Assembly: GCA_949283025.1 (NCBI GenBank)
Contig: CASDRB010000012.1
Span: 197,384 to 261,383, forward strand
Reading direction: 5' to 3'
Source: an uncultured bacterium
GTDB taxonomy: Bacteria; Bacillota_I; Bacilli_A; RFN20; CAG-826
DNA: 64,000 nt
The position numbers were made by a program, and so were the translations under genes. Below are positions 28,354 to 62,525 of this stretch, piece after piece (positions within the stretch are counted from its first letter, which is position 1; every line of letters starts with the position of its first letter). The notes under the pieces were generated by a model. That model did no database searches and was not told the origin of the DNA. It saw only the letters and a list, made by a program, of their open reading frames with translations.

Positions 28354-29133
28354 ATGAAAAAATTAACAAAGCATGCAAGTAGAAGAAAATGGATTCTTGG
28401 TGGCGTACTAGCTTTTGCTGGCGTAACTCTATTAACTGTTGGTACTGCTACTTGGATTGTTGGACAAGATAGTTCTAGCAAAGATGAAGACATTCAAGTA
28501 TCAGTTGACTCAGTTGAAAATAGGTCAGTAGTGTTGACGACCAAATTATCAGATAGTGCGATTGAATTAAAAGAGACTAAGGAACCAGCAGAAGACGGTA
28601 TTCTAGGACTTGAAGGTGGAGCGACTCCAGATGCATTAAAAATTACATTTAGTGAAATTAAATTAACTTATGGTAACAATTATTTCAATTCGGATAGCGA
28701 TAGTTTAAAATTTGATTTTTCAATCAAATATCACGACGAAGAAGGTAGCGCTACAAATTCGCAAAATTTAGTTAAAGAAAGTAAAATTGGCACTAAGCGA
28801 GTTCAAGATAAAACAGCAGCTTCTATTAAAAATGAAAGCAATGATTCGTGGGAATATGTTGCTGCACCTGAACCATTGACTTTATCTGGCAGCGGAGGAA
28901 CTGGTGATACAGATCCTACTAGCGGTTTAAAAACTATCACATACACTAGTAAAACTGTAGAATTTAGATGGGGTAGCTTCTTTAATAATGAATCACCTTG
29001 CACATATTACAACAAATTGACTTTTGACAATGAATTAAAAGCGATGAATGATATTACTAATGAATTAGAAGCTATGCAAGTTTTAAGTAAAATTAGTTTA
29101 ACTATCTCTGTTTCAGTTGTTAAAGGAGCTTAA
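28354..29133 (+). CDS. Secreted protein with SipW-cognate (TasA/camelysin-type) N-terminal signal peptide. Paralog 1 of 5. Candidate fibre/matrix subunit.
   Basis: 259 aa. N-terminus 'KKWILGGVLAFAGVTLLTVGTATWIVGQDSS' has a basic n-region, a hydrophobic core and a G-T-A-T-W-x-x-G-x-D box, resembling B. subtilis TasA '...GGGTWAAFND'. Strong RBS. Clear paralogy to the next ORF ('DIQVSVDSVENRSVVLTT' versus 'NITVSVADVQDKSLIITE'). Confidence 0.5.
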   Translation: MKKLTKHASRRKWILGGVLAFAGVTLLTVGTATWIVGQDSSSKDEDIQVSVDSVENRSVVLTTKLSDSAIELKETKEPAEDGILGLEGGATPDALKITFSEIKLTYGNNYFNSDSDSLKFDFSIKYHDEEGSATNSQNLVKESKIGTKRVQDKTAASIKNESNDSWEYVAAPEPLTLSGSGGTGDTDPTSGLKTITYTSKTVEFRWGSFFNNESPCTYYNKLTFDNELKAMNDITNELEAMQVLSKISLTISVSVVKGA

Positions 29134-29135
29134 AA

Positions 29136-29873
29136 ATGAAAATTAAACACAATAAAATTTTAACCTATTCAATGTTAGGTTTAGCTGCTGTATCATTAGT
29201 AGGCGTCGCGTTTTCATCATGGTTAGTCCAAGAGACTCAAGGAGCAAAAGTTGAAAACATCACTGTGTCAGTCGCCGATGTTCAAGACAAAAGTTTAATC
29301 ATAACTGAAGCAAAAGTTGATGAATATAATAAGACTTTCCTTTTTGATGCTAAAGAAGATGATACAACTGGGCCTATTATTTATACAGGTGAGACTGGTG
29401 GGGAAGATTTGAATTTTGGAATTACTTTTAAAGTAGAAAAAGCCTTAAATGCAAATGGCACTGCCGCTGCAGATAATTTTGGTGGCGTCTATGTTAAATG
29501 GGAAGTCACTGACGATGATGCCGGACGAGCTTTAAAAAACGCTATAACTAATAATTACATTGTTTCACCTTTGTCCGATAGCAATGTTGCTCTTCCTTCA
29601 TTTACTAATATTGGAGCTGATAGCGGAACTACTGTTAGTGGAACTAATGTTCAGGTCACATATGATGCTGATACAGTAACTAAAACCACTCTTACTGTTT
29701 CAGTCACATTTAGTTTTGCTTGGGGGAGTAAAACTGGCAGTCAAAATCCAGGAGAGTATGCTACTACCGATGATCCCGCTACTACACAAACTGCATTACA
29801 AGTTTTAATTGATTTGCAAGCCGCTAATAATGCGAAGTTTAACATTGTCTTAACTCCATTTTTAAAAGCATAA
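29136..29873 (+). CDS. Secreted protein with SipW-cognate signal peptide. Paralog 2 of 5.
   Basis: 245 aa. 'LGLAAVSLVGVAFSSWLVQETQGA'. RBS AAAGGAG. Thr/Ser/Asp/Asn-rich beta-type composition. Followed by a terminator. Confidence 0.5.
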   Translation: MKIKHNKILTYSMLGLAAVSLVGVAFSSWLVQETQGAKVENITVSVADVQDKSLIITEAKVDEYNKTFLFDAKEDDTTGPIIYTGETGGEDLNFGITFKVEKALNANGTAAADNFGGVYVKWEVTDDDAGRALKNAITNNYIVSPLSDSNVALPSFTNIGADSGTTVSGTNVQVTYDADTVTKTTLTVSVTFSFAWGSKTGSQNPGEYATTDDPATTQTALQVLIDLQAANNAKFNIVLTPFLKA

Positions 29874-29894
29874 TAAATTTATCAATAAACTTTT

Positions 29895-29924
29895 AACGCC
29901 TTTTTAGGCGTTTCTTCTTTTTTA
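29895..29924 (+). terminator. Rho-independent (probably partial) terminator between the subunit genes and the signal-peptidase gene
   Basis: Stem aacgcct / aggcgtt with loop tttt, then tcttctttttt. Confidence 0.5.
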
Positions 29925-29947
29925 TATGCGCGCACGCATAATAACCT

Positions 29948-30994
29948 ATGAACAGTTTAGAAATTCTTTCATTAATTATCACTTTTATCTGTTTGATAAG
30001 TTTTTGCATCGTTTTTACATTTTTATTTCGTGCCTATTTTAAAAATACGATAAAAAATATCAATGAAGGAAAAGAAGATATTGAATTAATTGATCAAGCT
30101 GTCATCGATGAGCAAAAAAAACATTCTAAAAAACAAAAAGTTTTAAAAGTAACCGGTAAGGTCATCTCATATACCATATTAGGCGCACTTATTGCTTTTT
30201 TTGGAATGGCCATCATTTCTAGAATAGCAGGTAATACTTTATTTTTTGGAGATACTACTGTAGTAGTTATCGCTTCTGGTTCAATGTCGAAAAAAAATAG
30301 CGCTAATACATATTTGCAAACATACGATTTAAACAATCAAATCGACACATATGATATAATTGGCATTAGCAAATATAAAAATTCACAACAAGTAAAATTG
30401 TACGATGTTGTCGCTTTTAAAGCTGATAACGGGGTCACAATTGTTCATCGCATTATAGATATTCAATATGATGATGATGGTATCGCTTATTACACTACAC
30501 GCGGAGATTCTAATGCGATAAGCGATAATGGTAGTTTATATAATGGCTATTTGACGTATGAAAATCTGGTTGGATATTATAACGGGGTGCGAGTTCCAAT
30601 ATTAGGTTCGTTTGTTATTTTTTTACAATCAGGTTCAGGAATTATTACTATTCTTTCCATCATATATTGTTTCGTGATGTTTGATGTATATAAAAAGAAA
30701 CTAGATGATGCAATTATCAATCGTAGCAATATGCTTATAGAATTGATAGATTATGATCCATCAAACGGCGATATCATTAATGATTTTAAACAAGAGTTGT
30801 ACTATCAAGGAATCAAATATACTTTCAAAGACGGACAATTTATCGATAAGTCTGAAACAATCGACGAACGTTTCAAAGATGTTGATAAAGATGATATGGT
30901 ATTTGTTAATGAAAGCAAAAATGAAACGTCTATTAAAATAAAGAATACTAAAAACAATCACATAAGTGATTTAAATGATAAGCGTGATAAATGA
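29948..30994 (+). CDS. sipW: Sec11/SipW-type (S26B) signal peptidase I with an extra N-terminal TM and a C-terminal cytoplasmic extension of about 100 aa
   Basis: 348 aa. Ser box 'VVIASGSMSKK', His box 'TIVHRIIDI' and 'TTRGDSNAISD' match the Sec11/SipW family (SGSMEP ... VHRV ... TKGDNN..D). TM helices flank the catalytic domain. The extra tail is 'DVYKKKLDDAIINRSN...KRDK'. Ends with a TGA stop. Confidence 0.7.
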   Translation: MNSLEILSLIITFICLISFCIVFTFLFRAYFKNTIKNINEGKEDIELIDQAVIDEQKKHSKKQKVLKVTGKVISYTILGALIAFFGMAIISRIAGNTLFFGDTTVVVIASGSMSKKNSANTYLQTYDLNNQIDTYDIIGISKYKNSQQVKLYDVVAFKADNGVTIVHRIIDIQYDDDGIAYYTTRGDSNAISDNGSLYNGYLTYENLVGYYNGVRVPILGSFVIFLQSGSGIITILSIIYCFVMFDVYKKKLDDAIINRSNMLIELIDYDPSNGDIINDFKQELYYQGIKYTFKDGQFIDKSETIDERFKDVDKDDMVFVNESKNETSIKIKNTKNNHISDLNDKRDK

Positions 30995-31007
30995 GGGGGA
31001 ACACACT

Positions 31008-32819
31008 ATGAAAACACACTTTACACGAAAGAATTTTATCGTCTTATCTTGTGTCTTTTTTTATTTAGTCATCACTGCCTTTTGTGCATTGTGCCTAGAT
31101 GCTAAAAGTTCAATAGTAAGAGACGGCAATCCAATTCAATTAATTGCTAAAGCATTCGGATTTACTTTAGTATCAATTAATTTAGCAACTGGAGTATTAT
31201 GCGCGATGTTAGGAATTTATACATTGCTTTTTGCCGCTGCACTAATTTATGAAACAAGACTAGCAAAATACTATGGTGAAAAGGCTAACTCATTAAAATG
31301 GTTGGGAATTTATGTTATTACTTTTGTAGTTTGTTATGGACTAGCTATCGGCATTGGAGTTATCGCGCATATTCCAGTTGACGCTACTGCATTAGGATAT
31401 TCATTTTCATTTTGTTTACAAGCCTTTTTAATTGGCTTAATTATTTTCATATTTGCGGCAGCATTAGTCTTGTTTGCCCTACTTTTAATTTTGAACATCA
31501 AAAATTATGGAAAGCCATATAAATGGTTTGGACCAAAAGTTGAAAAGGCTGAATTAGATGAAAAACTTCAAGAAAGAATTGAAGAAAATAAACAGATTGA
31601 ACAGGGCTTATTGGCCGCTGCATTTGGCGATGTAAAAGCTCAGGGAGTCGCTCATACTACTGAATCAAACACAAATAGTTCCACTTCTGCAAATTCATCG
31701 TTAGAAAACAATTATAATTTAGTGAAAGAAAGGGTCTTCCCTGGTTTATGCAAAATTGACACTATTCATGAGATTGTTTTGCAAGAAGATTTTGCTAACG
31801 ACATAAACTTAGCCACTCTTTGTGAACAATTCCGAAACTATTTGGCTTCACATGAAAGATTATACTATGATATGCCAACTATTCGCGCTTTTGTGGCAGG
31901 ATTAAGTGCATCTCGTTTAATTATTTTAGAAGGTCTTTCTGGTACTGGTAAATCTTCAATCGCTCGTTATTTTTCTGATTTTATTAACGAAAAGTCATTT
32001 TTTGTTCCTGTTCAAGCTACTTGGCGCGATCGTACATCAGTATTAGGATTTTTTAATGATTTTTCCAAAACTTATAATGAAACCGAATTTTTAAAACATC
32101 TATATGAAGCCACATATCGAGCAAGACATGTCAATATCATGGTTTTAGATGAAATGAATATTTCCCGTATTGAATATTATTTTGCTGATTTCTTGTCAAT
32201 TATGGAATATCCGATGAATGACTGGGTTTTAAAAATAATGCAATTACCATATGATTTTGAAGCACCTCTGCATTTAGAAGATGGTGAACTTCACATTCCT
32301 GAAACGACTTGGTTTATCGGCACCGCAAATAAAGATGACTCAACATATACAATTACTGATAAAGTCTATGACCGTGCTATAGTCATCTCTTTTAGCGATC
32401 GAAACGAACCATTCCAAGTTGTTGGAAAATCTGACCCAATCACTTTATCTTATGATTATTTAATGGAACTATATAATCATGCTCAAAAAGATGAAGATAA
32501 TCGTTTAAATGGCGCTGACATCGCTAAATTTAAAACTATCACTGACCAAATTTATGATTCGTTTGATTTGACGTTTGGTAATCGTATCATGAATCAAATC
32601 GAATTATTTGTTCCAACATTTGTTGCTTGTGGCGGAACAAAAGAAGAAGCATTAGACTTTATGTTAGCCCGCAAGGTTTTAATTAAACTTGATGGCCGCT
32701 TTGAAGAATATGTTAAAAAAGGATTAGAAGAATTATTAAAATTAATCAAAAAAACTTATGGCAAAGGCAATTTTGCTTTGAGCCAAGAATTAATTGAAAG
32801 ATTATTAAAACGCTTCTAA
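31008..32819 (+). CDS. Membrane-anchored McrB-like AAA+ (AAA_5) NTPase: 4 N-terminal TM helices and a Ser/Asn-rich linker, followed by the NTPase domain
   Basis: RBS GAGGGGG lies before ATG 31008 (the track ORF begins upstream at 30975). Walker A 'LEGLSGTGKSSIARY', McrB-type Walker B/sensor 'IMVLDEMNISRIEYYFADFLSIMEY' (compare McrB 'IDEINRAN...GEL..LLE') and 'WFIGTANKDDSTYTITDKVYDRAIVISF' (compare 'GTMNtaDrs...lD.AlrRRF'). The first roughly 200 aa are polytopic membrane. Confidence 0.5.
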   Translation: MKTHFTRKNFIVLSCVFFYLVITAFCALCLDAKSSIVRDGNPIQLIAKAFGFTLVSINLATGVLCAMLGIYTLLFAAALIYETRLAKYYGEKANSLKWLGIYVITFVVCYGLAIGIGVIAHIPVDATALGYSFSFCLQAFLIGLIIFIFAAALVLFALLLILNIKNYGKPYKWFGPKVEKAELDEKLQERIEENKQIEQGLLAAAFGDVKAQGVAHTTESNTNSSTSANSSLENNYNLVKERVFPGLCKIDTIHEIVLQEDFANDINLATLCEQFRNYLASHERLYYDMPTIRAFVAGLSASRLIILEGLSGTGKSSIARYFSDFINEKSFFVPVQATWRDRTSVLGFFNDFSKTYNETEFLKHLYEATYRARHVNIMVLDEMNISRIEYYFADFLSIMEYPMNDWVLKIMQLPYDFEAPLHLEDGELHIPETTWFIGTANKDDSTYTITDKVYDRAIVISFSDRNEPFQVVGKSDPITLSYDYLMELYNHAQKDEDNRLNGADIAKFKTITDQIYDSFDLTFGNRIMNQIELFVPTFVACGGTKEEALDFMLARKVLIKLDGRFEEYVKKGLEELLKLIKKTYGKGNFALSQELIERLLKRF

Positions 32820-32822
32820 TAT

Positions 32823-34184
32823 TTGATAATTATGCAAAAAGATAAATTTTTGGTTAAGATAAATGAATCGTTTATTCAAGCGCTTGGAATAAAGTGCGAT
32901 TTTAATAATGTAATTAAGGCGATTCATAAACAAGAAATATCTCTTTTTAGTCAACATCTTGAATCAGATTTATCATTTTTTGAAGAAATCAATTCTTTGA
33001 TTGATAAAATGATGAATATTATTTATCACCCCCATTTTCAAACGACGACAAATGAAGTTGTATTAAGAAGTGAAATTAGCCAATCTTTAAACCAAGAATC
33101 TTTTATCAAAACCACAAACGATCCATCTCTTTGGAAACAAAAACCAAACAAAGAAATGTATCCAGAATATGTTCATTCTATTGAATACATCGACACCTTG
33201 AATATCTATGAAAACAGGGTACTAATTTATGTTTATGAACAAATCTTAGCTTTTTTAGAAAACTATAAAAGTCAAACGATAACCCAAAATTCTTCTATTC
33301 AAGAATTTTATAAGCAAAAAGGTTTAGTTTTTGCTAAGCACAACATCGTCGATGATTTATTAAAAAACAAAAAAAGGATTGCCGAATTTATTCAAGGTGA
33401 TGAAGAAAAAATAGCGGAAATGAATACATTTTTAAAAGTGTATAAAAAAGCTAAAAGAATTAAATTAACTAGTTTTTATAAATTGCTTCGCCATGAAAAA
33501 ATTGCTCTGCCGTTAATGCCTACTAATATTTTAATTCACGACCTTAATTACAATTCAATTTATCGTTTTTATAAAAAATATCTAGTAGTCAAAACCGAAA
33601 AAGATGGAACTACTTATGAAGAATTAGCAAACTACATCTTCATACGTCTAATTGATGATTTAATAACATCAAAGTATAAATTTAACAAATTTAGCAAAAT
33701 AAAAATAAATCAACTTATTTTGCATCCAACAAAACCATTTGTTTGCCGCAAAGATGGTTTTAGATATTCAATTGATTATCAATTCCCGAATATTGATGTT
33801 TGTGTCTCATATAACAAATCTGCTTTAGCTTTTCATCGTTTAACAATAAGAGATAAATTATCAAATTATAGTTTTATTGATGATCGTGATATCAACACAT
33901 TTTATATCACGCTTAACAATGAATGTGATCAATACTTCAATGTTGTCGATATTAACATTAATAAACAAAACAATGATGAGCATATCTTCGACAATTTATT
34001 CAAATCAATGCGCGTTAATATTCCGTATAAAAACGATAAAGTTGAACGATGTCCAGTATGTGGTGGCATGCGTTTACAAAAGGACAAAAATTATTATTAT
34101 TGCGATAATTGTGGTTCAAAGCTTGCTAAACTAAAAATTAAGAGCAAACCGAGTCTTTGGATACAATCTTTGTGGAGGTATTGA
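32823..34184 (+). CDS. Hypothetical soluble protein with C-terminal C4 zinc ribbon. Genetic partner of the AAA_5 NTPase.
   Basis: 453 aa. C-terminal 'CPVCGGMRLQKDKNYYYCDNCGS'. No recognisable catalytic motif by eye. Starts 3 nt after the NTPase gene and ends (TGA) 2 nt before the ABC ATPase gene. Confidence 0.35.
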   Translation: MIIMQKDKFLVKINESFIQALGIKCDFNNVIKAIHKQEISLFSQHLESDLSFFEEINSLIDKMMNIIYHPHFQTTTNEVVLRSEISQSLNQESFIKTTNDPSLWKQKPNKEMYPEYVHSIEYIDTLNIYENRVLIYVYEQILAFLENYKSQTITQNSSIQEFYKQKGLVFAKHNIVDDLLKNKKRIAEFIQGDEEKIAEMNTFLKVYKKAKRIKLTSFYKLLRHEKIALPLMPTNILIHDLNYNSIYRFYKKYLVVKTEKDGTTYEELANYIFIRLIDDLITSKYKFNKFSKIKINQLILHPTKPFVCRKDGFRYSIDYQFPNIDVCVSYNKSALAFHRLTIRDKLSNYSFIDDRDINTFYITLNNECDQYFNVVDININKQNNDEHIFDNLFKSMRVNIPYKNDKVERCPVCGGMRLQKDKNYYYCDNCGSKLAKLKIKSKPSLWIQSLWRY

Positions 34185-34186
34185 TA

Positions 34187-34969
34187 ATGGCAGATAATCA
34201 AATGTTAAAAATTAACCAAGATATTTTAACTAACAACTTGCCTGACATTGCAATAAGTTTTGAAGACCTTCATAAATCATATGGAAAAAAGGAAGTGTTA
34301 AAAGGAATCACTTTGCAAATCAAAAAAGGCGAGATTTTTGGTTTTTTAGGAAAAAACGGAGTAGGCAAATCCACTACGATAGATTGCCTTGTCGGATTAA
34401 AAGATTATAATTCAGGAACAATTAAAATTTTTGATTTGGATATCAAAAAAAATCCATTAGAAGCCAAGTCTTTATTTGGTTATGTCCCATCTGAACCTAT
34501 GACTTACGAACTCATGAGCGGGTATGAGTATCTACAATTTGTTTCGGCCGCTTATGAAATGAGTCAAGAATCATTTGATGAAAACTATCAATTCTTAAAA
34601 GAAAAATTTGCCATAGGAGACGAGGATTTAAATCGAAGAATCATCGAATATTCTCATGGTATGAAACAAAAGGTTTGTTTGATGGCCTCATTAATTCATA
34701 ATCCAAAATTATGGATTATGGATGAACCAACAGTCGGTTTAGATGTCATGGTTTATGAAACATTATTAAAAATGATGAAGGAGTATTCAAAAAGCGGAAA
34801 TACTATTTTTGTTACTTCACATAACATTGATTTAGTCGCTTCAATTTGCGATCGAGTCGCTATCATTAATAATGGTAATATAGTCAATTTGATTGACTTT
34901 AATAAAGAACCATTAAAAAGAAAGGATTTAAAACGCATCTTTTTTAGGGTGTATGGCATCAATTTATGA
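34187..34969 (+). CDS. ABC transporter ATP-binding protein (NosF/ABC-2 type)
   Basis: RBS GGAGG lies before ATG 34187. Walker A 'GKNGVGKST', signature 'YSHGMKQKV' and Walker B 'LWIMDEPT'. Confidence 0.8.
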   Translation: MADNQMLKINQDILTNNLPDIAISFEDLHKSYGKKEVLKGITLQIKKGEIFGFLGKNGVGKSTTIDCLVGLKDYNSGTIKIFDLDIKKNPLEAKSLFGYVPSEPMTYELMSGYEYLQFVSAAYEMSQESFDENYQFLKEKFAIGDEDLNRRIIEYSHGMKQKVCLMASLIHNPKLWIMDEPTVGLDVMVYETLLKMMKEYSKSGNTIFVTSHNIDLVASICDRVAIINNGNIVNLIDFNKEPLKRKDLKRIFFRVYGINL

Positions 34970-36573
34970 TTTTATCTTTGGTTGGCAAAGAATATGTTGA
35001 AGCAAAAGAAAATGCTTCTAAATCAACCATAGCAGTTAAATGGATATTAACCGTATTGCTATATGCTTTTTTTGTTGCGTTAGAAGTATATATTTTTATT
35101 GCTATAAATAATAAATTGGATGAAATGTCATCATATGGCTCGTTTGATTTTATTTGTGTTTATTTATTTGTCATTACTATTATTTCTTCTATCATAGTCG
35201 TCAATAAAGCCAGAATTTCCATCTTTAAAGAAAAAGATCGGCTTTTATTATCTAAATTACCAATTACAAGTGATGATATCGTCATTTCAAAAGTTATTTA
35301 TATATATTTAAAAGAAGTCGCTAATTCTTTAATATTGGCCGCTCCTATTTTAATAACTTATGGCGCCCTTCACGAATTAAAGACTGGGTATTATATCTTT
35401 TCTTGTTTGTATCCTTTTTTTATTTCTTTTTTTAGCATCGGCGTCACAATGATTATTCTTATTCCATATAACTATATTTATAACTTTTTAAAGAAAAGAT
35501 ATATTTTACAAATTATTGTATCGTCTATTTTAGTTATTGGCTTATGCTTTGTTTATAAATACGTTTTAGAATTATTTTTAAATATTGTTAACAATTCCAA
35601 ATTGGATTATTTATTTTCTGAATCATTTATGGAATCGATCAATAAAACTGCCAGTTATTTGATACCAGTAAGTTCATATTTAAAAATGATTACAATTAAA
35701 ACTAATTTAGTTAGCAACACTTCTATATTTATTGGAGTATGTTTATTATTTAGTGTCATTGGCTTTTTCTTAGCTAGTTCATTATTAAAAAAATCACAAT
35801 TTGCCACTTCTGAAGAAACTTCAAGTGGTAAAATTAAAATCAAAAAGATAAAAACTGCCAAAAAAGCCTTAATTAGCAAGGAATTAATGTTGATTTTTAG
35901 AAACTCTAATTTCATTTTTACTTATACCGCCTTGATTATTATGCAGCCTTTTTTGACGTTGGTAGTCATCACTTCTTTAAACAAATTATTATATGATAGC
36001 CTAGAAATGTTTTTAATCTATTATCCAGAGATGATTAATGGTATCAATATTTGTATTATCTTGCTATTTTCATCTATTATTGGCGCTAGTTCAATTGAAC
36101 CATTATCAAGGGAAGGGAAAGGGCTATTAACCGTCAAACAAATCCCTATTTCTCCTATTACACAAACTTTGATTAAAATATCTATTACATCAATTATCTC
36201 TATTTTTTCTTTATTGATTTCAAATATCGTTTTGATTGGCACTTCCACTATTTCTGCAACTGTTTTTTGGGTTTCATTAGGGATAGGGATTTTGTTCACA
36301 ATTGAATTAAATATTTTGGGTTTGTTTTTAGATTTAAGACGTTTGGATGTTGATAAAAAAGCAAACATGACTTATCTTTCAGCTTTTGTATCCTTTGCTT
36401 TTCCGTTGTTATTAGGGATAATTCATTTTGCTTTAACCTTTATAAGGGTCAATGCCACCTATATTTATTTAATTGAATTTGGGCTAGCAATAATTGTTAT
36501 GATTCCTTTAATTTTGATGTATAAAAAAATAGTTAATGATGGTTTTACCAAGATGAGGAGTGAATTATTATGA
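34966..36573 (+). CDS. Large polytopic membrane protein, probable ABC-2-type permease partner
   Basis: 535 aa with at least 12 hydrophobic helices. Its ATG overlaps the ATPase stop (ATGA), and its stop overlaps the next start. Confidence 0.45.
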   Translation: MILSLVGKEYVEAKENASKSTIAVKWILTVLLYAFFVALEVYIFIAINNKLDEMSSYGSFDFICVYLFVITIISSIIVVNKARISIFKEKDRLLLSKLPITSDDIVISKVIYIYLKEVANSLILAAPILITYGALHELKTGYYIFSCLYPFFISFFSIGVTMIILIPYNYIYNFLKKRYILQIIVSSILVIGLCFVYKYVLELFLNIVNNSKLDYLFSESFMESINKTASYLIPVSSYLKMITIKTNLVSNTSIFIGVCLLFSVIGFFLASSLLKKSQFATSEETSSGKIKIKKIKTAKKALISKELMLIFRNSNFIFTYTALIIMQPFLTLVVITSLNKLLYDSLEMFLIYYPEMINGINICIILLFSSIIGASSIEPLSREGKGLLTVKQIPISPITQTLIKISITSIISIFSLLISNIVLIGTSTISATVFWVSLGIGILFTIELNILGLFLDLRRLDVDKKANMTYLSAFVSFAFPLLLGIIHFALTFIRVNATYIYLIEFGLAIIVMIPLILMYKKIVNDGFTKMRSELL

Positions 36574-39008: not shown

Positions 39009-39009
39009 C

Positions 39010-40110: not shown

Positions 40111-40141
40111 ATTTTATATATATATTAATAAATAAACAAAA

Positions 40142-40176
40142 ACACGAAGCGTCCCGAATCGCTTCGTGTTTTATTA
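40142..40176. terminator. Strong bidirectional rho-independent terminator between convergent transcription units
   Basis: 10-bp stem acacgaagcg / cgcttcgtgt with an 8-nt loop, flanked by an A-run upstream and ttttatt downstream. Confidence 0.65.
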
Positions 40177-43882: not shown

Positions 43883-43884
43883 AA

Positions 43885-45405: not shown

Positions 45406-45416
45406 ATTTGTTCCTC

Positions 45417-47858: not shown

Positions 47859-47873
47859 AAATTACCTCTTAAT

Positions 47874-48248
47874 CTAAGCATCCCAAATCGCATACAACTC
47901 AAAAGGCGTCTCGGGAGTTGCGGTTTGAGGAATAACATCATTTTCAAAGTCCCATAAATCGTTTTTGTCTAAAACAAATTTTAATGTAGACCAGCCAATA
48001 AAGGTAGTAAACGAAGGATCTGGGGATTCGACTTCAGTTGGATATTTAGTAATCTTTTCACCTGCATACGCAAAGGTGGTATAAATCGGCAAGGTCTCCT
48101 CACTGATAGCACCAAAATTATAAAAATTAATCGTGATTGCATTAGGATCATCAAAAGATGTAGAAGTTGTTGAAGAAGATGAATTACTTGTTGGCTTGCA
48201 ACCAACTAAAGCTATAACTGCTAATAACAAACATGCTGCTTTTTTCAT
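47874..48248 (-). CDS. Small lipoprotein with a Listeria-Bacteroides-repeat-like domain
   Basis: 124 aa. Lipobox 'ALVGCKPTS'. '...FYNFGAISEE...YPTEVESPDPSFTTFIGWS' is LBR-like. Confidence 0.4.
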   Translation of the reverse strand: MKKAACLLLAVIALVGCKPTSNSSSSTTSTSFDDPNAITINFYNFGAISEETLPIYTTFAYAGEKITKYPTEVESPDPSFTTFIGWSTLKFVLDKNDLWDFENDVIPQTATPETPFELYAIWDA

Positions 48249-48259
48249 TTTGTTTTCTC

Positions 48260-51334: not shown

Positions 51335-51341
51335 ATATCAA

Positions 51342-53633: not shown

Positions 53634-53656
53634 AAAAAAGCCTACAAATTGTAGGC
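53634..53656 (-). terminator. Rho-independent terminator after the Fe-ADH gene
   Basis: Stem gcctaca / tgtaggc with a 3-nt loop, and a T-run on the minus strand (plus-strand aaaaaag). Confidence 0.5.
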
Positions 53657-53659
53657 GAT

Positions 53660-54829: not shown

Positions 54830-54839
54830 AATTACTCCT

Positions 54840-55679: not shown

Positions 55680-55694
55680 TCTAAATTAATATAA

Positions 55695-57022: not shown

Positions 57023-57057
57023 GTTTATTTTATTTTAACAAATATTGGCCAAAAATC

Positions 57058-57088
57058 ATCAAAATAAAAGGTGTAGATTTGCTACACC
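57058..57088 (-). terminator. Rho-independent terminator ending fibre module B
   Basis: Stem ggtgtag / ctacacc with loop atttg. The plus-strand A-run 57058-57069 gives a T-run on the minus strand. The hairpin overlaps the sipW-like stop codon. Confidence 0.5.
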
Positions 57089-58737
57089 TAGTTATCTTCT
57101 TGTTCTTGAGTTTCACCACTTAAAATTTTTTCTTTAAGCTCTTGATAATGATCTTTGATTGGAATTTCTTTTTTATTAAGACCATCTTTGCTCATACAAT
57201 CCTTTATTAATTCCAACGCTCTTTTTAATGATAAAGTGGAACGGACTTTTAAGACGACAGGAATATCGGCATAAACACCTTTATTTCCAACATCTTTAAC
57301 AGGATAAGTTGTGTTTTCATAATCTTTATAATCTAATGCTAGATATAATTTTAAATTTTTGCCAGAAATAGCAATTTTACAATATGCTTTCTTATGCAAT
57401 CTAAATGTATCACCGGTAGCAGAAATACGAGATTTAACACCATAAGATAAAATTTCTTGTTTCATCGCATTATATCGGCTTTGCAATTCTTCATCTAGTT
57501 CTAAGAAACGTTGAGAAAATGAAATGCGGTCATAAGCTTTCGTTTTTCTTGGAGCGCCTGTTGAAGTAAACAAATGAGAACGCAAAGAATCATCTTCATC
57601 TTGCTCTTCTTTAATTTCTTCTACATTTGTTTCCTCATTATTTTGATTAGTGTCTACTGCTTGAGATTCATCCATTAAATTGTCTTCAACAGCATTATCT
57701 TGCGCTGTAGAAACTACTTCGTTATCTTTTTCTTGTTCGATTTGTTCAACTTGTTCAGTATTTTCTTTTCTTGTTGCCCAATCTAAATAATGAATTTCGT
57801 TTTCCTTAATAATCGCATCATCAATTTCATTTTCAAAACGAGTGTATAAATATTGTTTTCTCAAATTTATTTTTTTGCCTAAATAAATGTCTAAAATATC
57901 ATAAAAACCAATCAACACTAATGCTAAAGCAATGGTTATCATACCTATTCCAGATTGAATATAATAAATTACTATTCCTAATCCAAAATTTTGAAAACCG
58001 TTATATTTTCCAATTATATCTTGATATGTTAATCCTATTTCATAACCAGCACTCGATGTATTAGCATCGCCTCGAGCCGTAAAATATTTAACTCCTTCGT
58101 GTTCATAAATATCAATAACTCTATGAACAACAATATTATTATTGTCATCTTTAAAAGCAATAATATCATATAAATCAATATCGCCTTCTTCAACTTTATT
58201 AATACCAATTAAAGAATAGGTAGAAATTTGATTTGTTAAATTGTTTTCAATTAAATATTTATTATCTGGGTCCACTTTTTCCATTGAACCTGATTTAATA
58301 ATTAAACACGAGGTATCATTAATCATAAATAAGTCGCCTGACGCTCTAACATAAATAGCAAATCCCATAAATGCGACAAAGCAAATATAAACAACAATTA
58401 ACACGATATTTGCGACCATTTTAATGATATTTGCAGATTTTCTACCTTTTTCAATGTGCTGAGTAAAAGGAACGACATTTTCTTGTTTATATTCAACGGG
58501 TTGTTGATGATCATTTACTAAAGCTTCGGTTTTTAAAAAGTACTTTTTGTTTTCTAAAATAACTTCTCTTGCTATATAAGAATCTTCAACTTTATGATCG
58601 ATGCACTTTGCATAATATCGATAATAAAGATAAAACAAAACACCAAAACCTATCACAAGCAAAACAATGACACTGATTGAGACCGCCAATGAAATGGCTT
58701 CTAAATTGGATACACTATTTAAAATGATATTTGTCAT
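57088..58737 (-). CDS. sipW: Sec11/SipW-type (S26B) signal peptidase I, second copy, with a 2-TM N-terminal extension and a C-terminal cytoplasmic extension of about 230 aa including an acidic low-complexity tract
   Basis: 549 aa. Ser box 'LIIKSGSMEKV', His box 'IVVHRVIDI' and 'TARGDANTSS'. Three TM segments. Tail 'QVEQIEQEKDNEVV...EEQDEDDS' followed by a folded basic domain. Confidence 0.65.
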   Translation of the reverse strand: MTNIILNSVSNLEAISLAVSISVIVLLVIGFGVLFYLYYRYYAKCIDHKVEDSYIAREVILENKKYFLKTEALVNDHQQPVEYKQENVVPFTQHIEKGRKSANIIKMVANIVLIVVYICFVAFMGFAIYVRASGDLFMINDTSCLIIKSGSMEKVDPDNKYLIENNLTNQISTYSLIGINKVEEGDIDLYDIIAFKDDNNNIVVHRVIDIYEHEGVKYFTARGDANTSSAGYEIGLTYQDIIGKYNGFQNFGLGIVIYYIQSGIGMITIALALVLIGFYDILDIYLGKKINLRKQYLYTRFENEIDDAIIKENEIHYLDWATRKENTEQVEQIEQEKDNEVVSTAQDNAVEDNLMDESQAVDTNQNNEETNVEEIKEEQDEDDSLRSHLFTSTGAPRKTKAYDRISFSQRFLELDEELQSRYNAMKQEILSYGVKSRISATGDTFRLHKKAYCKIAISGKNLKLYLALDYKDYENTTYPVKDVGNKGVYADIPVVLKVRSTLSLKRALELIKDCMSKDGLNKKEIPIKDHYQELKEKILSGETQEQEDN

Positions 58738-58758
58738 TTGTTTTTCCTCCCGATCTAA

Positions 58759-61260
58759 CTATTTTGGAACAACTTGCAAGAAGTAATTTTTACGCACGAT
58801 AAATGGATTTTCCACATAATCTTGATATGCAACATACTCACCTGTAACAACATCTTGTAGACGTTTACCTTTTTGATCATAGTATTTAAGGAGTTGCTCA
58901 AAAGTTACTATATTGCCGCTAACTCCAATTTCAGATGGAATAGTCAATCCTGCTTGCCTGACATAATTATCGGTTCCTAAAATTGGTGTTTCTAAATAAT
59001 AATAGTCTTCGCAACGATATGAATACCTGCTAGTATCTAAATAATTTGAGCCCACTTCTAATATTTGTCCACCAAAATCATCTGGATCATAAATGTTAAC
59101 AAAGATGTTATGCAGACGATATGTCCAAATATCGACTGAATTTGGTATGTTATTTATATCATAATTTATGATTGTATATATGTTATATGTTCCAGTAACT
59201 TTAAATCTGATTAACTTAACATTATTATAAACAGCGTTCCATTCAGCAGAACCTTTACCCCACTCTGCAAGAGATTTTAATTCACTTGGGGCTCCATTAT
59301 TGTATGTTCTAACTTTGATACGTCTTAAATCTTCTGTATATAAAGTATTTCCGTCCACCGAAGTATATTTTCCATCCATTACATCTTGCAAAGATACCAA
59401 ATATTTTTTTGAAGAATAAACTTCTTCTATTTCATTACCATTGATATCTTTGTACTTATACACCGGTGCGTCATATTTCAAATTAGGATCCAAAGAGTCA
59501 GTAAATTCAGAATCATTAGGATTAGTATTATCTTGTCCATATAACTTTTGATCATATATTGTATTTTGGTCTAAAGCCACTTGAATGGCAAAATAATAAG
59601 CTGGTATCAAATATTGCCTTCTTGGAGTTCCATCATCATTATAAAAAGTATAATCAATATATTTTAATGTTGGATCATTATCATTACTAGGAACATTGAC
59701 TGTTCTATTTCTTAATTCATAACTTCTTAAAAGGGTACCGCTAGTGCCTTGTCTTGTAAAATTTAATTTATAAGATTGAGGATTATTATAATCAAGAGCT
59801 AAAGATGAACCACCGATAACCCTAGGCTCATAAACTCTTTCAACAACGATATATGTGCCACGTATGTTTCCTTCATAAGCGAATGTATTTGATAAATCTG
59901 TTTTATAAGATTCATAAATATAAATTCCATCATTTCTTAACATGCTATCAATATAGTCAATTTGATCGCCAGTAAAATTGCCATTCTCATAATAATTATC
60001 GTAATATTGGTTGCCTGTATCATAAGATTCTTTTACAAAAAAGTAAATATTATATCTTCCTATCTGATCATTTAAAGGAAAATCTGAGAAAATATTTCTT
60101 GAATGTTCATTGCCCGCCCAAGAACTACCATAACAGTTGATATCATTTCTTATAATATACTTGCCAACGACAGAATCACTATTTAAATTTGATTCATTAA
60201 TTAAAAGATTTGTATAACGATACGCCTCATATTTTATACCATAATAGTATGTTTTTAATTGGGGTAGCCAATCAACCCATTCCCATACATCATAGCTGCT
60301 TTCTTTTACTCCTGCAAAAGAGGCATTTTTTTGTAATGTGTCACTAAACTCTTTGTCGTAAGAAAAATTTAAAGAACCGCTATTGGTAAAAATTTCTACA
60401 CATTCTTTTAAATTATCTTTATTTCCAGCATCATATGAATAATTATCTTTTCCAGTCGAATACATAGGATAAAAAACTATTGTTTTTCTTCCATCAATCG
60501 TAATAGCGCAATCATTATAAATGCTCAATAACGTATTAAAACGAGCAAGTTCGGTAGTAGTAGAATACGATCCTGCTACATAATGATAACCATTAGCATC
60601 ACTTGGCGTTTTCCCACTTCTTTTATATGTATTGCCATCATAAGATAGGCCCCAGCCCATAAAATTTAAATAATAAAATTTATTATCATTAACTTCAGAA
60701 CTTCTATCTAGTAACCCGCACTTCAAATCACTATTATTTTTAGAATTTACAGGTAAAACATTTGGATTACTTAAATCATCGAGCATGCCGTTAGTCACTT
60801 CTGCAACATTACGATAAATTCTTGGTCCAATATAACAATTATTCACAATATAATTACTTTGTGTGGATTCATCTGGCCAATTTGTTTCATCATAAATCCA
60901 TTTCCCATAATATCCTTGTGCTTCTTGTTGGCCTTCTGGGATGTAAACCCATAGTGAATCATTGCTTTTATATTCGTTTGTTCCACCTTCAACTGGAGTT
61001 AATTTACTAGTTATGTCAACATTTTGAGCTAAAAACACAACATCATAATATTCAACATCGTTAACAACAACATCGCTTTCTTCACCAAAAGTTTGGTTGG
61101 CTCTTATTGCATCTCCAATTGGTGATGCTTGTTCAGAAATATTAAAATTATTAGCAAAATAAAAGGTGGAATATGCTGTTGTTACAACCATGCCCAATGC
61201 ACCGACAACTAAAAACGATGCAATGATAGGTTTTTTGAAAAAACTTTTAATATTCATCAT
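58759..61260 (-). CDS. Large secreted/surface protein (833 aa) with a SipW-cognate-like signal peptide
   Basis: 'KKPIIASFLVVGALGMVVTTAYSTFYFANNFN' (compare TasA 'GGGTWAAFND'). Tyr/Asn/Gly-rich. Its ATG overlaps the stop of the upstream small paralog (TAATG). Confidence 0.4.
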   Translation of the reverse strand: MMNIKSFFKKPIIASFLVVGALGMVVTTAYSTFYFANNFNISEQASPIGDAIRANQTFGEESDVVVNDVEYYDVVFLAQNVDITSKLTPVEGGTNEYKSNDSLWVYIPEGQQEAQGYYGKWIYDETNWPDESTQSNYIVNNCYIGPRIYRNVAEVTNGMLDDLSNPNVLPVNSKNNSDLKCGLLDRSSEVNDNKFYYLNFMGWGLSYDGNTYKRSGKTPSDANGYHYVAGSYSTTTELARFNTLLSIYNDCAITIDGRKTIVFYPMYSTGKDNYSYDAGNKDNLKECVEIFTNSGSLNFSYDKEFSDTLQKNASFAGVKESSYDVWEWVDWLPQLKTYYYGIKYEAYRYTNLLINESNLNSDSVVGKYIIRNDINCYGSSWAGNEHSRNIFSDFPLNDQIGRYNIYFFVKESYDTGNQYYDNYYENGNFTGDQIDYIDSMLRNDGIYIYESYKTDLSNTFAYEGNIRGTYIVVERVYEPRVIGGSSLALDYNNPQSYKLNFTRQGTSGTLLRSYELRNRTVNVPSNDNDPTLKYIDYTFYNDDGTPRRQYLIPAYYFAIQVALDQNTIYDQKLYGQDNTNPNDSEFTDSLDPNLKYDAPVYKYKDINGNEIEEVYSSKKYLVSLQDVMDGKYTSVDGNTLYTEDLRRIKVRTYNNGAPSELKSLAEWGKGSAEWNAVYNNVKLIRFKVTGTYNIYTIINYDINNIPNSVDIWTYRLHNIFVNIYDPDDFGGQILEVGSNYLDTSRYSYRCEDYYYLETPILGTDNYVRQAGLTIPSEIGVSGNIVTFEQLLKYYDQKGKRLQDVVTGEYVAYQDYVENPFIVRKNYFLQVVPK

Positions 61261-61865
61261 TATCCCACCCTTTCATAAGTTATGTTTAAAGTTAAGGTTA
61301 CTTTTTCATCTTTATACAAATTTAATTGTTCAAGCATCGTAACAAACTTAGCGGATGAATCTGGTTTCATACCGCTTTTGTAACGAAATAAAGGTGTTAA
61401 TGTATAAGTTTTTGTTCCTGCAGTTAAATCAACATTTAAAAATCCTTCTTGATTTTCAACAAATTCAGCATATGTATTGAAAGCAATATTATTTCCAACA
61501 TCAAATCCTAATTGATATTTGAAATCATAACCGCTCAAATTTGCATAATCATCACCTAAAGAACCTTCGGCAATAGGATTAAAATCAAACACGAGATTTG
61601 GAACAAAATTAACACCAACATCTTCATTGCCTATTTCATTGTCTCCGCCTTGTTCAAAAACAATGCGATAGTTTTCATATCCTAATGTAGTTGGACCAAT
61701 TAGGTTTATTTCTCCTAATTCGCATTTAGTAGCAATGGTTATTCCAAATGCTATTTGATCGTTTTGGGTTTGGTTAGTAAAAATCCATGCTCCAAATCCA
61801 GCAGTTACAACTGTAGCAAAAGAAATAAGCGGAACAAAAAGTTGTGCTAAAAAACGTTTAAACAT
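61260..61865 (-). CDS. Secreted protein with SipW-cognate signal peptide. Paralog 4 of 5.
   Basis: 201 aa. 'LFVPLISFATVVTAGFGAWIFTNQTQND'. The shared block 'FEQGGDNEIGNEDVGVNF' corresponds to 'YTGETGGEDLNFGITF' in paralog 2. Confidence 0.45.
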   Translation of the reverse strand: MFKRFLAQLFVPLISFATVVTAGFGAWIFTNQTQNDQIAFGITIATKCELGEINLIGPTTLGYENYRIVFEQGGDNEIGNEDVGVNFVPNLVFDFNPIAEGSLGDDYANLSGYDFKYQLGFDVGNNIAFNTYAEFVENQEGFLNVDLTAGTKTYTLTPLFRYKSGMKPDSSAKFVTMLEQLNLYKDEKVTLTLNITYERVG

Positions 61866-61901
61866 CTTATTTATTTATATATTTATTTCTAAACTATATT
61901 A

Positions 61902-62525
61902 TTATTTGTCTGTCCAAGTAGCTGTAACAGTCACTGTTAAAGTAAATTTTTTGCTATTTAATGCAGTAACCATGGCATCATATTCTGTTTTGTCAGCTGG
62001 TTTATCAACATATGTCCAAGTTAATGGCACACTAGACCATTTATGAATGGTCCCAGAACTCATTGTGCCAGCATTATAATTATCAACAACGACATCACTA
62101 GCACTTTCTTTTGCAAGTCCATTAGTTAAATCAAAATAAGTTGTGACATTATCAGTTGAACTAATAGCAACTGTATAAGAAAGTGTCAATTTGCTATTTG
62201 TAAGTAATTCTTGTAAACCACCAACTGTTTCATATGAAACTTTAATATCATAAGAAGTTACGGTGGATTTTATTCCTTCACTTGCAATACTAGCATTAGC
62301 AATACCGCCTTGATCTAAAGTTAAATTAACTGCGGTTAAATCGTTATCAGTATCAACTTCCTTTATTTCTACTTTCAACTTATCAACTACCGGGGTAATA
62401 CTGAAAGTTCCACTAAGCGTATCAGTAACTGAGGTATCACTAAATACCCAAGCAGAAAAACCTGAACCGACCACGACAGCTGCTCCTAAAACAGGTAGCA
62501 TGAAATTATAAAATTTTTTATGCAT
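61902..62525 (-). CDS. Secreted protein with SipW-cognate signal peptide. Paralog 5 of 5 and first gene of module B.
   Basis: 207 aa. 'MLPVLGAAVVVGSGFSAWVFSDTSVTD'. Strong RBS AAGGAGGG. Confidence 0.45.
   Translation of the reverse strand: MHKKFYNFMLPVLGAAVVVGSGFSAWVFSDTSVTDTLSGTFSITPVVDKLKVEIKEVDTDNDLTAVNLTLDQGGIANASIASEGIKSTVTSYDIKVSYETVGGLQELLTNSKLTLSYTVAISSTDNVTTYFDLTNGLAKESASDVVVDNYNAGTMSSGTIHKWSSVPLTWTYVDKPADKTEYDAMVTALNSKKFTLTVTVTATWTDK

Follow-up and report, generated by a model that had tools for sequence, protein, structure and literature searches.

The window, a stretch of 64,000 nucleotides from an uncultured low-GC gut bacterium, on balance appears to contain a conserved secretion/assembly cassette twice, once complete and once as a variant. 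The substrates of either copy would be at least two small beta-sandwich proteins of ~200-260 aa (S), joined in the complete cassette by one large protein (G). A co-encoded, dedicated peptidase very probably cleaves the cognate signal of these putative surface proteins, with a predicted site of G/A↓F-S-A-W-x-F. The S and G proteins may then form a polymer, at somewhat less than an even chance. The original prediction described three iterated modules of this kind. Its ORF coordinates are identical to those in the ORF listing of the window and the ORFs are real, but the threefold repetition is overstated. Module 3 (57088-62525) is the sole complete cassette of the window. Module 1 (28354-30994) is a variant cassette with a syntenic AAA/ABC/G1 block fused to it. 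"Module 2" (41606-44505) consists of two orphans, S3 and G2, whose resemblance to the cassettes is visual only, and neither G1 nor G2 is related to G3. The features are listed below, with arrows at the predicted cleavage sites.

61902-62525, minus strand: S5, 207-aa small secreted protein, founder of the S family; tag MHKKF..LPVLGAAVVVGSG↓FSAWVF
61260-61865, minus strand: S4, 201-aa small secreted paralog; tag ..VVTAG↓FGAWIF
58759-61260, minus strand: G3, 833-aa large secreted partner; variant tag ..VVTTA↓YSTFYF
57088-58737, minus strand: Pep2, 549-aa SipW/Sec11-type (S26B) signal peptidase
57069-57089, minus strand: terminator-like hairpin that closes the S5-S4-G3-Pep2 transcription unit
28354-29133, plus strand: S1, 259-aa small secreted protein; tag ..LLTVG↓TATWIV
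29136-29873, plus strand: S2, 245-aa small secreted protein; tag ..SLVGVA↓FSSWLV
29895-29912, plus strand: terminator-like hairpin between S2 and Pep1
29948-30994, plus strand: Pep1, 348-aa SipW/Sec11-type (S26B) signal peptidase
30975-40110, plus strand: block syntenic with module 1 in relatives, in the same gene order in loci L033 and L032
30975-32819, plus strand: TM-AAA ATPase, in the block 3' of module 1
32823-34184, plus strand: 453-aa Zn-ribbon protein, same block
34157-34969, plus strand: ABC ATPase, same block
34966-36573, plus strand: ABC permease-like protein, same block
36570-39008, plus strand: G1, 812 aa, same block
38959-40110, plus strand: Flg_new lipoprotein, last gene of the block
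43885-44505, minus strand: S3, 206-aa orphan protein; ..LFSLG↓FSSFSV
41606-43882, minus strand: G2, 758 aa, directly downstream of S3; ..IFSIS↓LSSFLIV

A further terminator-like hairpin (62851-62870) lies upstream of the S5-S4-G3-Pep2 unit and closes the preceding gene. The S2-Pep1 intergenic hairpin may act as a transcriptional attenuator, giving an excess of S1 and S2. The case for this is weak because the hairpin is not conserved in L033. The AAA/ABC/G1 block has the same order in L033, where it follows S1-S2-Pep, and in L032, where S-S-S-Pep-G precedes it. Whether the block is part of the system is uncertain; its AAA protein matches the PADLOC defence candidate PDC-M26A (1.6e-39).

A genome scan seeded with the small-protein motif [IV]VGSGFSAW alone returned 28 loci, 25 of which have enough flanking DNA to be informative; the other three are cut by contig ends. 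At least two S genes, one SipW-like peptidase and one G-type large protein are present in all 25 informative loci. The cassettes contain two to five tandem S paralogs and one large partner. The same cassette occurs in a high-GC relative (L001), and the type B cassettes have the order S-Pep-S(-G). The hosts are uncultured gut Bacilli/"Mollicutes" MAGs, RF39/RFN20-like judging by the MAG titles. Since the tagged proteins are linked to a co-encoded, dedicated SipW-type peptidase in 25/25 informative loci, the arrangement follows the logic of a cognate signal/peptidase pair.

The tag has three parts: an n-region that is short and basic, a hydrophobic helix with Pro and Gly, and a near-invariant V-G-[SA]-G-F-[SA]-A-W-x-F box, which takes the form ..S-F-G-L-S-Y-F-Y-F in the G proteins. 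It is the best-conserved part of the S family, whose mean column identity is 16%. Among 135 members, G20 is conserved in 133, G22 in 132, F23 in 131, W26 in 133 and F28 in 134. Residues 1-30 carry 2.76 bits per column and the remainder 1.52, and the N-terminal 28 aa of S5 are more conserved than any other part of that protein. The apparent conservation is somewhat inflated because members were retrieved with the conserved N-terminus as seed. The independently retrieved S2 family has the same conservation pattern and aligns with the S5 family over 68 columns (hhalign probability 98%, E 7.5e-14). The S family likewise aligns with the G family (probability 94.5%, E 8e-8). By these alignments, the tag is common to families that are otherwise unalignable.

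A tag HMM, built from the first 48 residues of the S5 family, was compared with every ORF of the window. S5 (7e-24), S4 (1.2e-14), S2 (7e-7) and G3 (4e-4) have significant E-values, so the shared N-terminal box of the original prediction stands for these proteins. S1 is marginal (0.03, with the next unrelated ORF at 0.087), but it is a paralog of S2 (BLASTP 8e-6) and its tag is accepted on that basis. The box does not extend significantly to S3 (0.36) or G2. Two of the large proteins had been assigned the same kind of N-terminus; this is correct for G3, but G2 is not found by the tag HMM, and G1 also has no match. In a control of ~70 ordinary signal peptides and signal-peptide-like N-termini, the cassette proteins alone occupy the top ranks. 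S3 (4.9 bits) falls within the background, whose top-scoring ordinary lipoprotein signal has 5.9 bits. The tag HMM does not find the tag in other secreted proteins of the window.

The SipW/Sec11-type assignment of the two peptidases is upheld by profile matches, SEC11 similarity and invariant motifs. Pep1 matches the NCBIfam SipW model NF046067 (4.8e-17, 62.2 bits) and, at 53.7 bits, exceeds the curated cut-off of TIGR02228 sigpep_I_arch (51.85 bits). Pep2 is below the cut-off of both NF046067 (2.6e-11, 43.4 bits) and TIGR02228 (1.3e-9, 38.1 bits). Neither reaches the NF046067 equivalog cut-off of 190 bits, and by these scores both are SipW-like proteins, not SipW orthologs. They are paralogs of one another (28% identity over 384 aa, E 1.6e-38). 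Pep1 contains the motifs SGSM, VHR and GDSN and matches human SEC11C/SEC11A in the PDB, with the H-R and G-D-x-N stretch aligned. Without exception (29/29), the cassette peptidases preserve the catalytic motifs S-M, H-R and G-D-x-N; they have the S26B pattern of a Ser nucleophile, a His general base and a conserved Asp and not the S26A Ser-Lys dyad. Because of these invariant motifs and the Sec11 homology, the cassette peptidases look active. Pep2 has orthologs in 26 loci. It has an additional transmembrane helix at its N-terminus and, at its C-terminus, a tail of ~270 aa that is cytoplasmic as judged by eye.

S5 has 56 homologs, all unnamed and without Pfam domains, and the S family comprises ~630 representative clusters at 50% identity (E ≤ 1e-3). 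No Pfam or NCBIfam match is present in 135 members. The AF2 model of S5 (pLDDT 85.3) predicts a helix (residues 3-22), an extended arm (23-49) that lies outside the beta-sandwich, and the beta-sandwich itself (50-206). S4 is related to S5 (BLASTP 1e-5), and its orthologs adjoin S5-like genes in seven loci (L001, L005-L008, L012 and L014). S2 has 38 homologs, and S1 has orthologs in L032 and L033 in the same position. The five small proteins had been described as paralogous, which holds for the N-terminal ~50-100 residues but not for the remainder. The shared internal block (D/E)(Q/T)GG is confirmed: L70, D71 and Q72 each reach 90% conservation or more among the 135 members. S3 has a single database match (99% identity) and aligns with the family at P 8e-4 over 29 columns (hhalign); it is possibly a degenerate S protein.

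In G3, the tag is followed by a G-specific block (D.I..N..FG....YYDV.F). G3 has homologs in every complete cassette, where the G proteins are 716-1163 aa long, and has no Pfam or PDB match. Type A and type B G proteins are alignable in their N-terminal part (69 columns; hhalign probability 99.4%, E 4e-21). G1 has no relation to the G3 family. G2 has no homolog in any fetched locus and no Pfam or PDB match. Its alignment with the G family is not significant (hhalign P 0.2), and an IVENY stretch is in register with D.I.ENY; G2 is possibly a degenerate G protein.

In the proposed mechanism, Sec would export the S and G proteins, and the membrane-bound peptidase would cut after an invariant small residue (G/A at -1; G/S/T at -3 in every family). 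The mature proteins would all start with an aromatic hexapeptide, [F/L/Y]-S-x-[W/F]-x-[F/V]. The conserved post-cleavage arm, which in S5 spans approximately residues 23-49 and has no structure in the monomer model, would then serve in cell-surface assembly, most likely by N-terminal strand donation between S subunits. In TasA, residues 28-38, right after the SipW cleavage site, form the donor strand (PMC9674648). A G protein with the same arm could be a nucleator, anchor or adhesive tip, comparable to TapA for TasA and, as has been proposed, AbpB for AbpA. Gene linkage, tag conservation, intact catalytic residues and the predicted beta-sandwich fold are shown, whereas the cleavage site, surface location and polymerisation are inferred.

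The same peptidase-substrate pairing could also operate with no polymer, in which case the arm would function in recognition or retention only and the S and G proteins would be displayed or secreted singly as adhesins, glycan- or host-binding proteins, or a surface coat. This is rather unlikely. It would fit the hypervariable C-terminal parts, which are typical of exposed adhesins, and the fact that no known fibre subunit matches the fold. In one family member, which is followed by a further S gene, the S domain is joined to BspA-type LRR adhesin repeats (LRR_5, 3.9e-85); this points to a surface or adhesive role. However, conservation common to S and G runs ~20 residues beyond the predicted cleavage site (F23-F28 and G39-T44 in the S family). 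This exceeds what a peptidase needs, and peptidase recognition alone hardly explains it. A polymer is the product of every dedicated-SipW operon characterised so far (TasA, CalY, BsaA), and two to five tandem S paralogs with one large partner is a pilus-like composition.

The S proteins might instead be true, extremely diverged members of the TasA/BsaA superfamily, making the cassette just another TasA-type fibre operon. This is improbable. In its favour, the TasA/BsaA family is known for wide divergence, with only 632 of 2,172 iteratively found members matching M73 (PMC11580942), the operon order resembles tapA-sipW-tasA, and 44 N-terminal columns align with TasA (S residues 2-47 with TasA 3-48, hhalign P 4.8e-4). 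Against it, the alignment ends at residue 47, with nothing past it. PF12389 Peptidase_M73 has no match in S1-S5 at E ≤ 0.1 or in the 135 S-family members at E ≤ 1. TIGR04088, the model of the SipW-cognate signal, has no match in S1-S5 or G1-G3, nor in the 135 members at E ≤ 10. Searches of PDB sequences with the S proteins, profile searches included, are empty. The TasA fibre appears in Foldseek at E 0.35, and the model is not superposable on the TasA jelly-roll (5OF1/8AUR). The N-terminus of TasA scores 7.5 bits on the tag HMM, against 5.9 bits for the top ordinary lipoprotein signal, so its likeness to the tag is marginal. By these comparisons, the TasA resemblance is marginal and confined to the first ~45 residues. 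With neither HMM nor structural similarity to TasA/camelysin, a result that the original prediction itself named as refuting, its TasA-like claim fails; the cassette may nevertheless work like a TasA system.

It is quite improbable that the N-terminal helix remains uncleaved as a signal-anchor that tethers the S and G proteins, packed against a multi-pass peptidase-like protein in a membrane complex. Such a complex would accord with the predicted helix (residues 3-22, pLDDT ~81; L10, P11 and G14 conserved), with the extra transmembrane helices and long tails of the peptidases, cytoplasmic as judged by eye, and with the membrane-anchored BsaA oligomers of C. perfringens (PMC11580942). The S and G proteins have no other anchor: no LPXTG, hydrophobic stretch or basic tail is present at the C-termini of S1-S5 and G1-G3, and no sortase is seen in the cassettes. 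Against this, the catalytic Ser/His/Asp motifs are invariant (29/29), which implies that cleavage is under selection. The helix is only ~18 residues long with Pro and Gly, as in a signal peptide, and in all families it ends in a perfect small/small -3/-1 site. The predicted site has G at -1 in 132/135 and at -3 in 133/135 S-family members, A at -1 in 17/19 and G at -3 in 18/19 members of the S2 family, and G at -1 in 17/19 members of the G family, with small residues at -3. The -3/-1 rule is satisfied at a single position only. A type IV pilin or class III signal is ruled against by inspection, as the hydrophobic helix precedes the box and no Glu is present at +5, and the cassettes contain no prepilin peptidase, PilB or PilC genes.

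Ordinary Sec signal peptides beside a peptidase by coincidence are very improbable: S3 and G2 are indistinguishable from ordinary signal peptides and may be such, but for S5, S4, S2, S1 and G3 this is contradicted by the 25/25 linkage, the near-invariant box and the exclusive top ranks of cassette proteins on the tag HMM.

The cassettes could, though less likely than not, represent an undescribed, sortase-independent class of surface filament or display system of uncultured, genome-reduced gut Bacilli/"Mollicutes". This class would have new, non-TasA beta-sandwich subunits, a 716-1163-aa primer or tip, and a private Sec11/SipW-like peptidase for sorting and activating them by way of a new signal, VG[SA]G↓F[SA]AWxF. 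The SipW/TasA principle would then have been invented a second time independently, or have split in ancient times, and the principle of a dedicated signal peptidase plus strand-donating subunits would reach beyond the TasA fold. Three unannotated protein families would be defined (S, with ~630 clusters at 50% identity; G; and the long-form S26B peptidase), along with a new N-terminal sorting signal that is searchable by motif. The cassettes would be a candidate route for abundant uncultured gut Bacilli to surface attachment or matrix without sortase pili. With the motif and cassette as guides, annotation could be given to hundreds of hypothetical proteins from gut metagenomes.

The cassettes share several features with tapA-sipW-tasA of B. 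subtilis. A dedicated S26B peptidase is encoded between or beside its substrates, and type B cassettes (S-Pep-S(-G)) mirror the operon order. The substrates have a common conserved signal with a G-x-G-aromatic-A-aromatic-F-x-D-like box and a conserved segment right after the (here predicted) cleavage site. G, like TapA, is an accessory partner that has that N-terminal segment alone in common with the subunits. Past the first ~45 residues, the S proteins resemble TasA neither in sequence nor in fold, and the tag is one residue longer than the TasA signal and does not match TIGR04088. SipW is ~190 aa long, whereas the cassette peptidases have an extra N-terminal transmembrane helix, long C-terminal tails and total lengths of 189-897 aa. 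The cassette partner has 716-1163 aa versus 253 aa.

The original prediction held the arrangement to be undescribed, which is too strong. The C. perfringens sipW-bsaA-bsaB-bsaC operon combines SipW, small paralogous matrix subunits and a larger secreted 70-kDa vWA protein, BsaC (PMC11580942; PMC7395162). Like the S and G proteins, the Bsa proteins lack an LPXTG motif, and their oligomers are anchored in the membrane rather than in peptidoglycan, which may be a further likeness. BsaA and BsaB can be recognised as remote homologs of TasA, and BsaC contains vWA, whereas S and G have no known domain; in addition, no N-E-K isopeptide triad is identified in the cassette proteins. In the bundling pili of archaea, AbpA, a small donor-strand subunit, is paired with the larger, multi-domain, 410-aa AbpB (PMC9245690), a similar pairing to that of the cassettes. 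In AbpB, the beta-sandwich next to the signal is a proposed primer of assembly, and the distal domains are proposed adhesins. Unlike S, AbpA has a TasA-like jelly-roll fold, and the archaeal pair has no dedicated peptidase encoded nearby.

The LPXTG/sortase, PEP-CTERM/exosortase and class III signal/prepilin peptidase pairs also place a short conserved tag on otherwise unrelated co-encoded proteins and have a genomically linked processing enzyme. The cassettes differ in having no C-terminal tag and, compared with the class III system, no G↓F-x-x-x-E motif or PilB/PilC. In contrast to all three pairs, the cassette tag is N-terminal and Sec-type (n-h-c), and the cassette enzyme is an S26B serine peptidase.

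Every open reading frame claimed in the original prediction is present in the ORF listing of the window, in a region with a GC content of approximately 30%. The small secreted proteins (S1–S5), large proteins (G1–G3) and peptidases (Pep1 and Pep2) are encoded as follows.

28354-29133, + strand: S1, small protein, 259 aa
29136-29873, + strand: S2, small protein, 245 aa
29948-30994, + strand: Pep1, peptidase, 348 aa
36570-39008, + strand: G1, large protein, 812 aa
41606-43882, - strand: G2, large protein, 758 aa
43885-44505, - strand: S3, small protein, 206 aa
57088-58737, - strand: Pep2, peptidase, 549 aa
58759-61260, - strand: G3, large protein, 833 aa
61260-61865, - strand: S4, small protein, 201 aa
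61902-62525, - strand: S5, small protein, 207 aa

The public gene call for S5 (P0001) is 199 aa long; its start codon lies 8 codons into the ORF and so leaves out the conserved MHKKF n-region. The longer start at 62525 is probably correct, because nearly all homologs retain this n-region.

Comparative genomics is the decisive evidence for the cassette. When 185,579 species-representative genomes are scanned with a back-translated peptide of the small protein alone ([IV]VGSGFSAW) as bait, 28 loci are recovered. All belong to MAGs of uncultured gut organisms that carry the labels Bacilli, Firmicutes, Mollicutes or Candidatus Caccosoma. In each of the 25 loci with enough flanking sequence, two or more S genes occur with one Pep homolog and one protein of 716-1163 aa whose N-terminus is of the G type; the remaining three are interrupted by contig ends and were left out of this count. 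Each cassette encodes between 2 and 5 S paralogs in tandem. The type A gene order, S-S-G-Pep, is that of module 3 of the window (S5-S4-G3-Pep2) and is seen even in a high-GC relative. The type B order is S (~265 aa), Pep (~330 aa), S (~207 aa) and G (~900-1160 aa). Terminator-like hairpins on both sides of module 3 indicate one transcription unit. The pairing of peptidase and predicted substrates is well supported. Some loci come from one project's bins with the implausible-looking titles Prevotella, Alistipes, Lachnospiraceae or Bacteroidales (L010, L020, L023, L030, L031). With a Bacilli-type cassette, these look like mislabelled or chimeric bins, and record titles are therefore unfit for judging taxonomic range.

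In BLASTP comparisons, similarity among the small proteins is N-terminal only (S1-S2, 8e-6; S4-S5, 1e-5; S2-S5, 3e-3), and S3 has no significant match to the others. S5 has 56 close-to-moderate homologs, and a full HMMER scan collects 630 representative clusters. None of these is named or carries a Pfam domain, and no member of any family has a database name. In a 135-member alignment of the S5 family (the S family), mean column identity is 16%, and conservation is highest over the first 28 residues. Their consensus is M-[KH]-[RK]-K-x-L-x-x-x-L-P-x-x-G-x-x-x-[IV]-V-G-[SA]-G-F-S-A-W-x-F, with G20, G22, F23, W26 and F28 retained in 131-134 of the 135 sequences.

An HMM of this N-terminal tag (residues 1-48 of the S5 family) was searched against all window ORFs. 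It finds S5 (7e-24), S4 (1e-14), S2 (7e-7), G3 (4e-4) and S1 (0.03); the best unrelated ORF is at 0.087, S3 is at 0.36, and G1 and G2 are undetected. Cassette proteins score 9.9-25.7 bits, against 5.9 bits for the best lipoprotein signal in a control of about 70 ordinary signal-peptide-like N-termini. Profile-profile comparison links the S2 and S5 families (probability 98%, E 7.5e-14, 68 columns), the S family and the G family of G3-type partners (94.5%, E 8e-8), and the G proteins of both cassette types (99.4%, E 4e-21), the last over only the N-terminal 69 columns. At the sequence level, a tag common to otherwise unalignable families is confirmed. The shared N-terminus originally claimed thus stands for S5, S4, S2, S1 and G3 by HMM, BLASTP and profile-profile comparison, falls for G1, and is not demonstrable for S3 and G2.

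The claim that Pep1 and Pep2 are SipW/Sec11-type enzymes holds: both are true signal peptidases of the ER/archaeal (S26B) type. With TIGR02228, Pep1 reaches 53.7 bits, above the curated cut-off of 51.85, and with the Bacillus SipW model it gives 4.8e-17; the corresponding values for Pep2 are 1.3e-9 and 2.6e-11. The two are paralogs (E 1.6e-38), and human SEC11C/SEC11A align with Pep1 over the His and Asp motifs. All 29 aligned cassette peptidases retain the S-M, H-R and G-D-x-N motifs, and these enzymes are therefore very likely active. Orthology to SipW is ruled out by scores of 62 and 43 bits against an equivalog cut-off of 190 bits. Both exceed SipW in length and have an additional N-terminal transmembrane helix and a C-terminal tail read as cytoplasmic; across the cassettes, total peptidase length varies between 189 and 897 aa. 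The tail, which accounts for the extra length, combines an acidic low-complexity stretch with a conserved terminal domain of ~130 aa that has no Pfam match. In Pep2, it is the C-terminal ~270 aa (57088-57900) and has homologs in L008, L009, L013 and L014. The SipW of B. subtilis has a regulatory C-terminal tail, which may parallel that of the cassette peptidases. A genome scan with Pep1 as the single query gives no match.

The -3/-1 rule is satisfied in every family at one position only, the residue preceding the aromatic box. At this position, -1 is G in 132/135 and -3 is G in 133/135 S-family sequences. In the S2 family, -1 is A (17/19) and -3 is G (18/19); in the G family, -1 is G (17/19) and -3 is S, G, A or T. 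An alternative site after position 25 has Tyr there in many G proteins. S5 is predicted to be cleaved between residues 22 and 23 (VGSG/FSAWVF), because this is the sole position that meets the rule in all families. The corresponding predicted sites are TVG/TATWIV in S1, GVA/FSSWLV in S2, TAG/FGAWIF in S4 and TTA/YSTFYF in G3.

A signal peptidase requires few residues flanking the scissile bond. Beyond the predicted site, two blocks are conserved, F23-F28 and G39-T-[VI]-x-[VI]-T44, and both belong to an extended arm (residues 23-49) that lies outside the sandwich in the confident S5 model. In TasA, residues 28-38, directly after the SipW site, form the donor strand, and TapA mimics a donor strand (PMC9674648). 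A conserved arm after the predicted site in both S and its large partner resembles this arrangement. The C-terminal parts of the cassette proteins are hypervariable, and no C-terminal anchor is present in S or G proteins. In one protein, P0173 (L034 2617-4635), the tag and S domain (residues 1-224) are naturally fused to leucine-rich adhesin repeats of the BspA type (LRR_5, 3.9e-85); the next gene (L034 4670-5110) is another tagged S gene.

In the most economical model, S subunits would polymerise into a surface appendage or matrix, and G would serve as primer, anchor or tip. This model is favoured because of the post-cleavage arm, the tandem S paralogs, the hypervariable C-termini, the absent anchor and the leucine-rich repeat fusion. 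We infer cleavage site, location and polymerisation alike. With processing unchanged, S and G could instead be monomeric surface adhesins or a coat, without a polymer; this is possible, if unlikely.

The claim that the small proteins are TasA-like fails in the family HMM and fold tests proposed with it, as well as in PDB sequence searches. Peptidase_M73 and TIGR04088 have no match among S1–S5, nor in 135 diverse S-family members, even with E-value limits relaxed to 1 for Pfam and 10 for NCBIfam. The small proteins have no PDB sequence relatives, as single sequences or profiles, and PDB sequence searches with S5, A1, A2, A3, G1 and G2 yield nothing useful. Both AF2 models of S5 are beta-sandwiches, the first with pLDDT 68 and the second, from a deeper alignment, with pLDDT 85.3 and pTM 0.71. 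The best Foldseek match is at E 0.046; the TasA fibre 8AUR is at E 0.35 and TM 0.23. With a TasA sequence validated against 8AUR, the S profile aligns only at columns 2-47, to TasA residues 3-48 (probability 32%, P 4.8e-4). On the tag HMM, TasA reaches 7.5 bits, against 5.9 for the highest-scoring lipoprotein signal in the control. The likeness between the tag and the TasA signal hardly exceeds that of ordinary signal peptides and is suggestive but marginal, and homology of the globular domain is unsupported. The TasA/BsaA superfamily is notoriously divergent (PMC11580942), which speaks for S proteins as hidden TasA homologs, a reading that is nonetheless improbable. A type IV pilin reading was rejected by motif order and missing machinery. 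The invariance of the catalytic residues and a perfect -3/-1 site argue against an uncleaved signal-anchor complex.

Chance association is excluded except for S3 and G2, the claimed second module. S3 is an orphan with a single database match (99% identity), and G2 has no relative in any fetched locus. Their reading as a displaced S(207)/G(875) pair of L032 was rejected by BLASTP, in which only the N-terminal 20 residues of S3 align (E 0.017) and G2 has no significant match.

Module 1 (S1-S2-Pep1 and the downstream block) is a cassette variant. The order in L033, S1-S2-Pep-AAA-442aa-ABC-permease-G1like-Flg_new lipoprotein, is identical to window 28354-40110. In L032 the genes around the peptidase include a third S and a tagged protein of 875 aa, and the same downstream block follows. 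G1 lacks the tag, is unrelated to G3 and was rejected as a G3-type partner; it is best read as a conserved syntenic neighbour only, because L032 and L033 share its order. The block at 30975-36573 (L032 14938-20434, L033 11648-17137) encodes an AAA ATPase, a 453-aa protein that carries a zinc ribbon at its C-terminus, an ABC ATPase and a multi-pass permease of 535 aa, and comes after the S-S-Pep genes in three genomes. The membrane-anchored AAA_5/McrB-like ATPase (614 aa) matches the PADLOC defence candidate PDC-M26A at 1.6e-39, and its homologs also occur within about 7 kb of type B cassettes (L027, L029, L030). The block may be a separate system, and could be a defence island or part of the export/assembly system. 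A hairpin between S2 and Pep1 was rejected as an attenuator, as it is not conserved in L033. A palindromic hairpin with a 13-bp stem (40139-40172) lies between a convergent lipoprotein gene (+, ends 40110) and an HI0933-like flavoprotein gene (-, ends 40418), and is likely a bidirectional terminator at the end of a long module 1 operon.

Directly between S3/G2 and module 3 is a lipoprotein-type starch-utilisation cluster (44608-51256, - strand) with a CBM26-like protein (weak, sub-threshold Pfam match), a small lipoprotein, and 813-aa and 998-aa proteins that by eye resemble amylase and pullulanase. Judged by eye, a 733-aa secreted protein at 51342-53543 is nuclease-like in its N-terminal region, carries Ig-like repeats and has a transmembrane anchor at the C-terminus. 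The adjoining genes, with their lipoprotein boxes, starch-degrading enzymes and sugar metabolism, fit a saccharolytic gut organism of Gram-positive or Mollicutes-like type.

The evidence for the cassette is entirely computational, and the literature searched contains no paper that ties SipW to these lineages or describes the cassette. The underlying principle is already known. It is common to sipW-tasA-calY of B. cereus and to tapA-sipW-tasA of B. subtilis, whose order is that of the type B cassette. It is also found in C. perfringens sipW-bsaABC, where a 70-kDa partner and membrane-anchored oligomers are already present (PMC11580942), and in archaeal AbpA/AbpB (PMC9245690). What is new here is the S and G substrate families, without Pfam, NCBIfam or PDB relatives, together with a putative variant of the cognate signal, a long-form peptidase, a strict four-component cassette and the host lineage.
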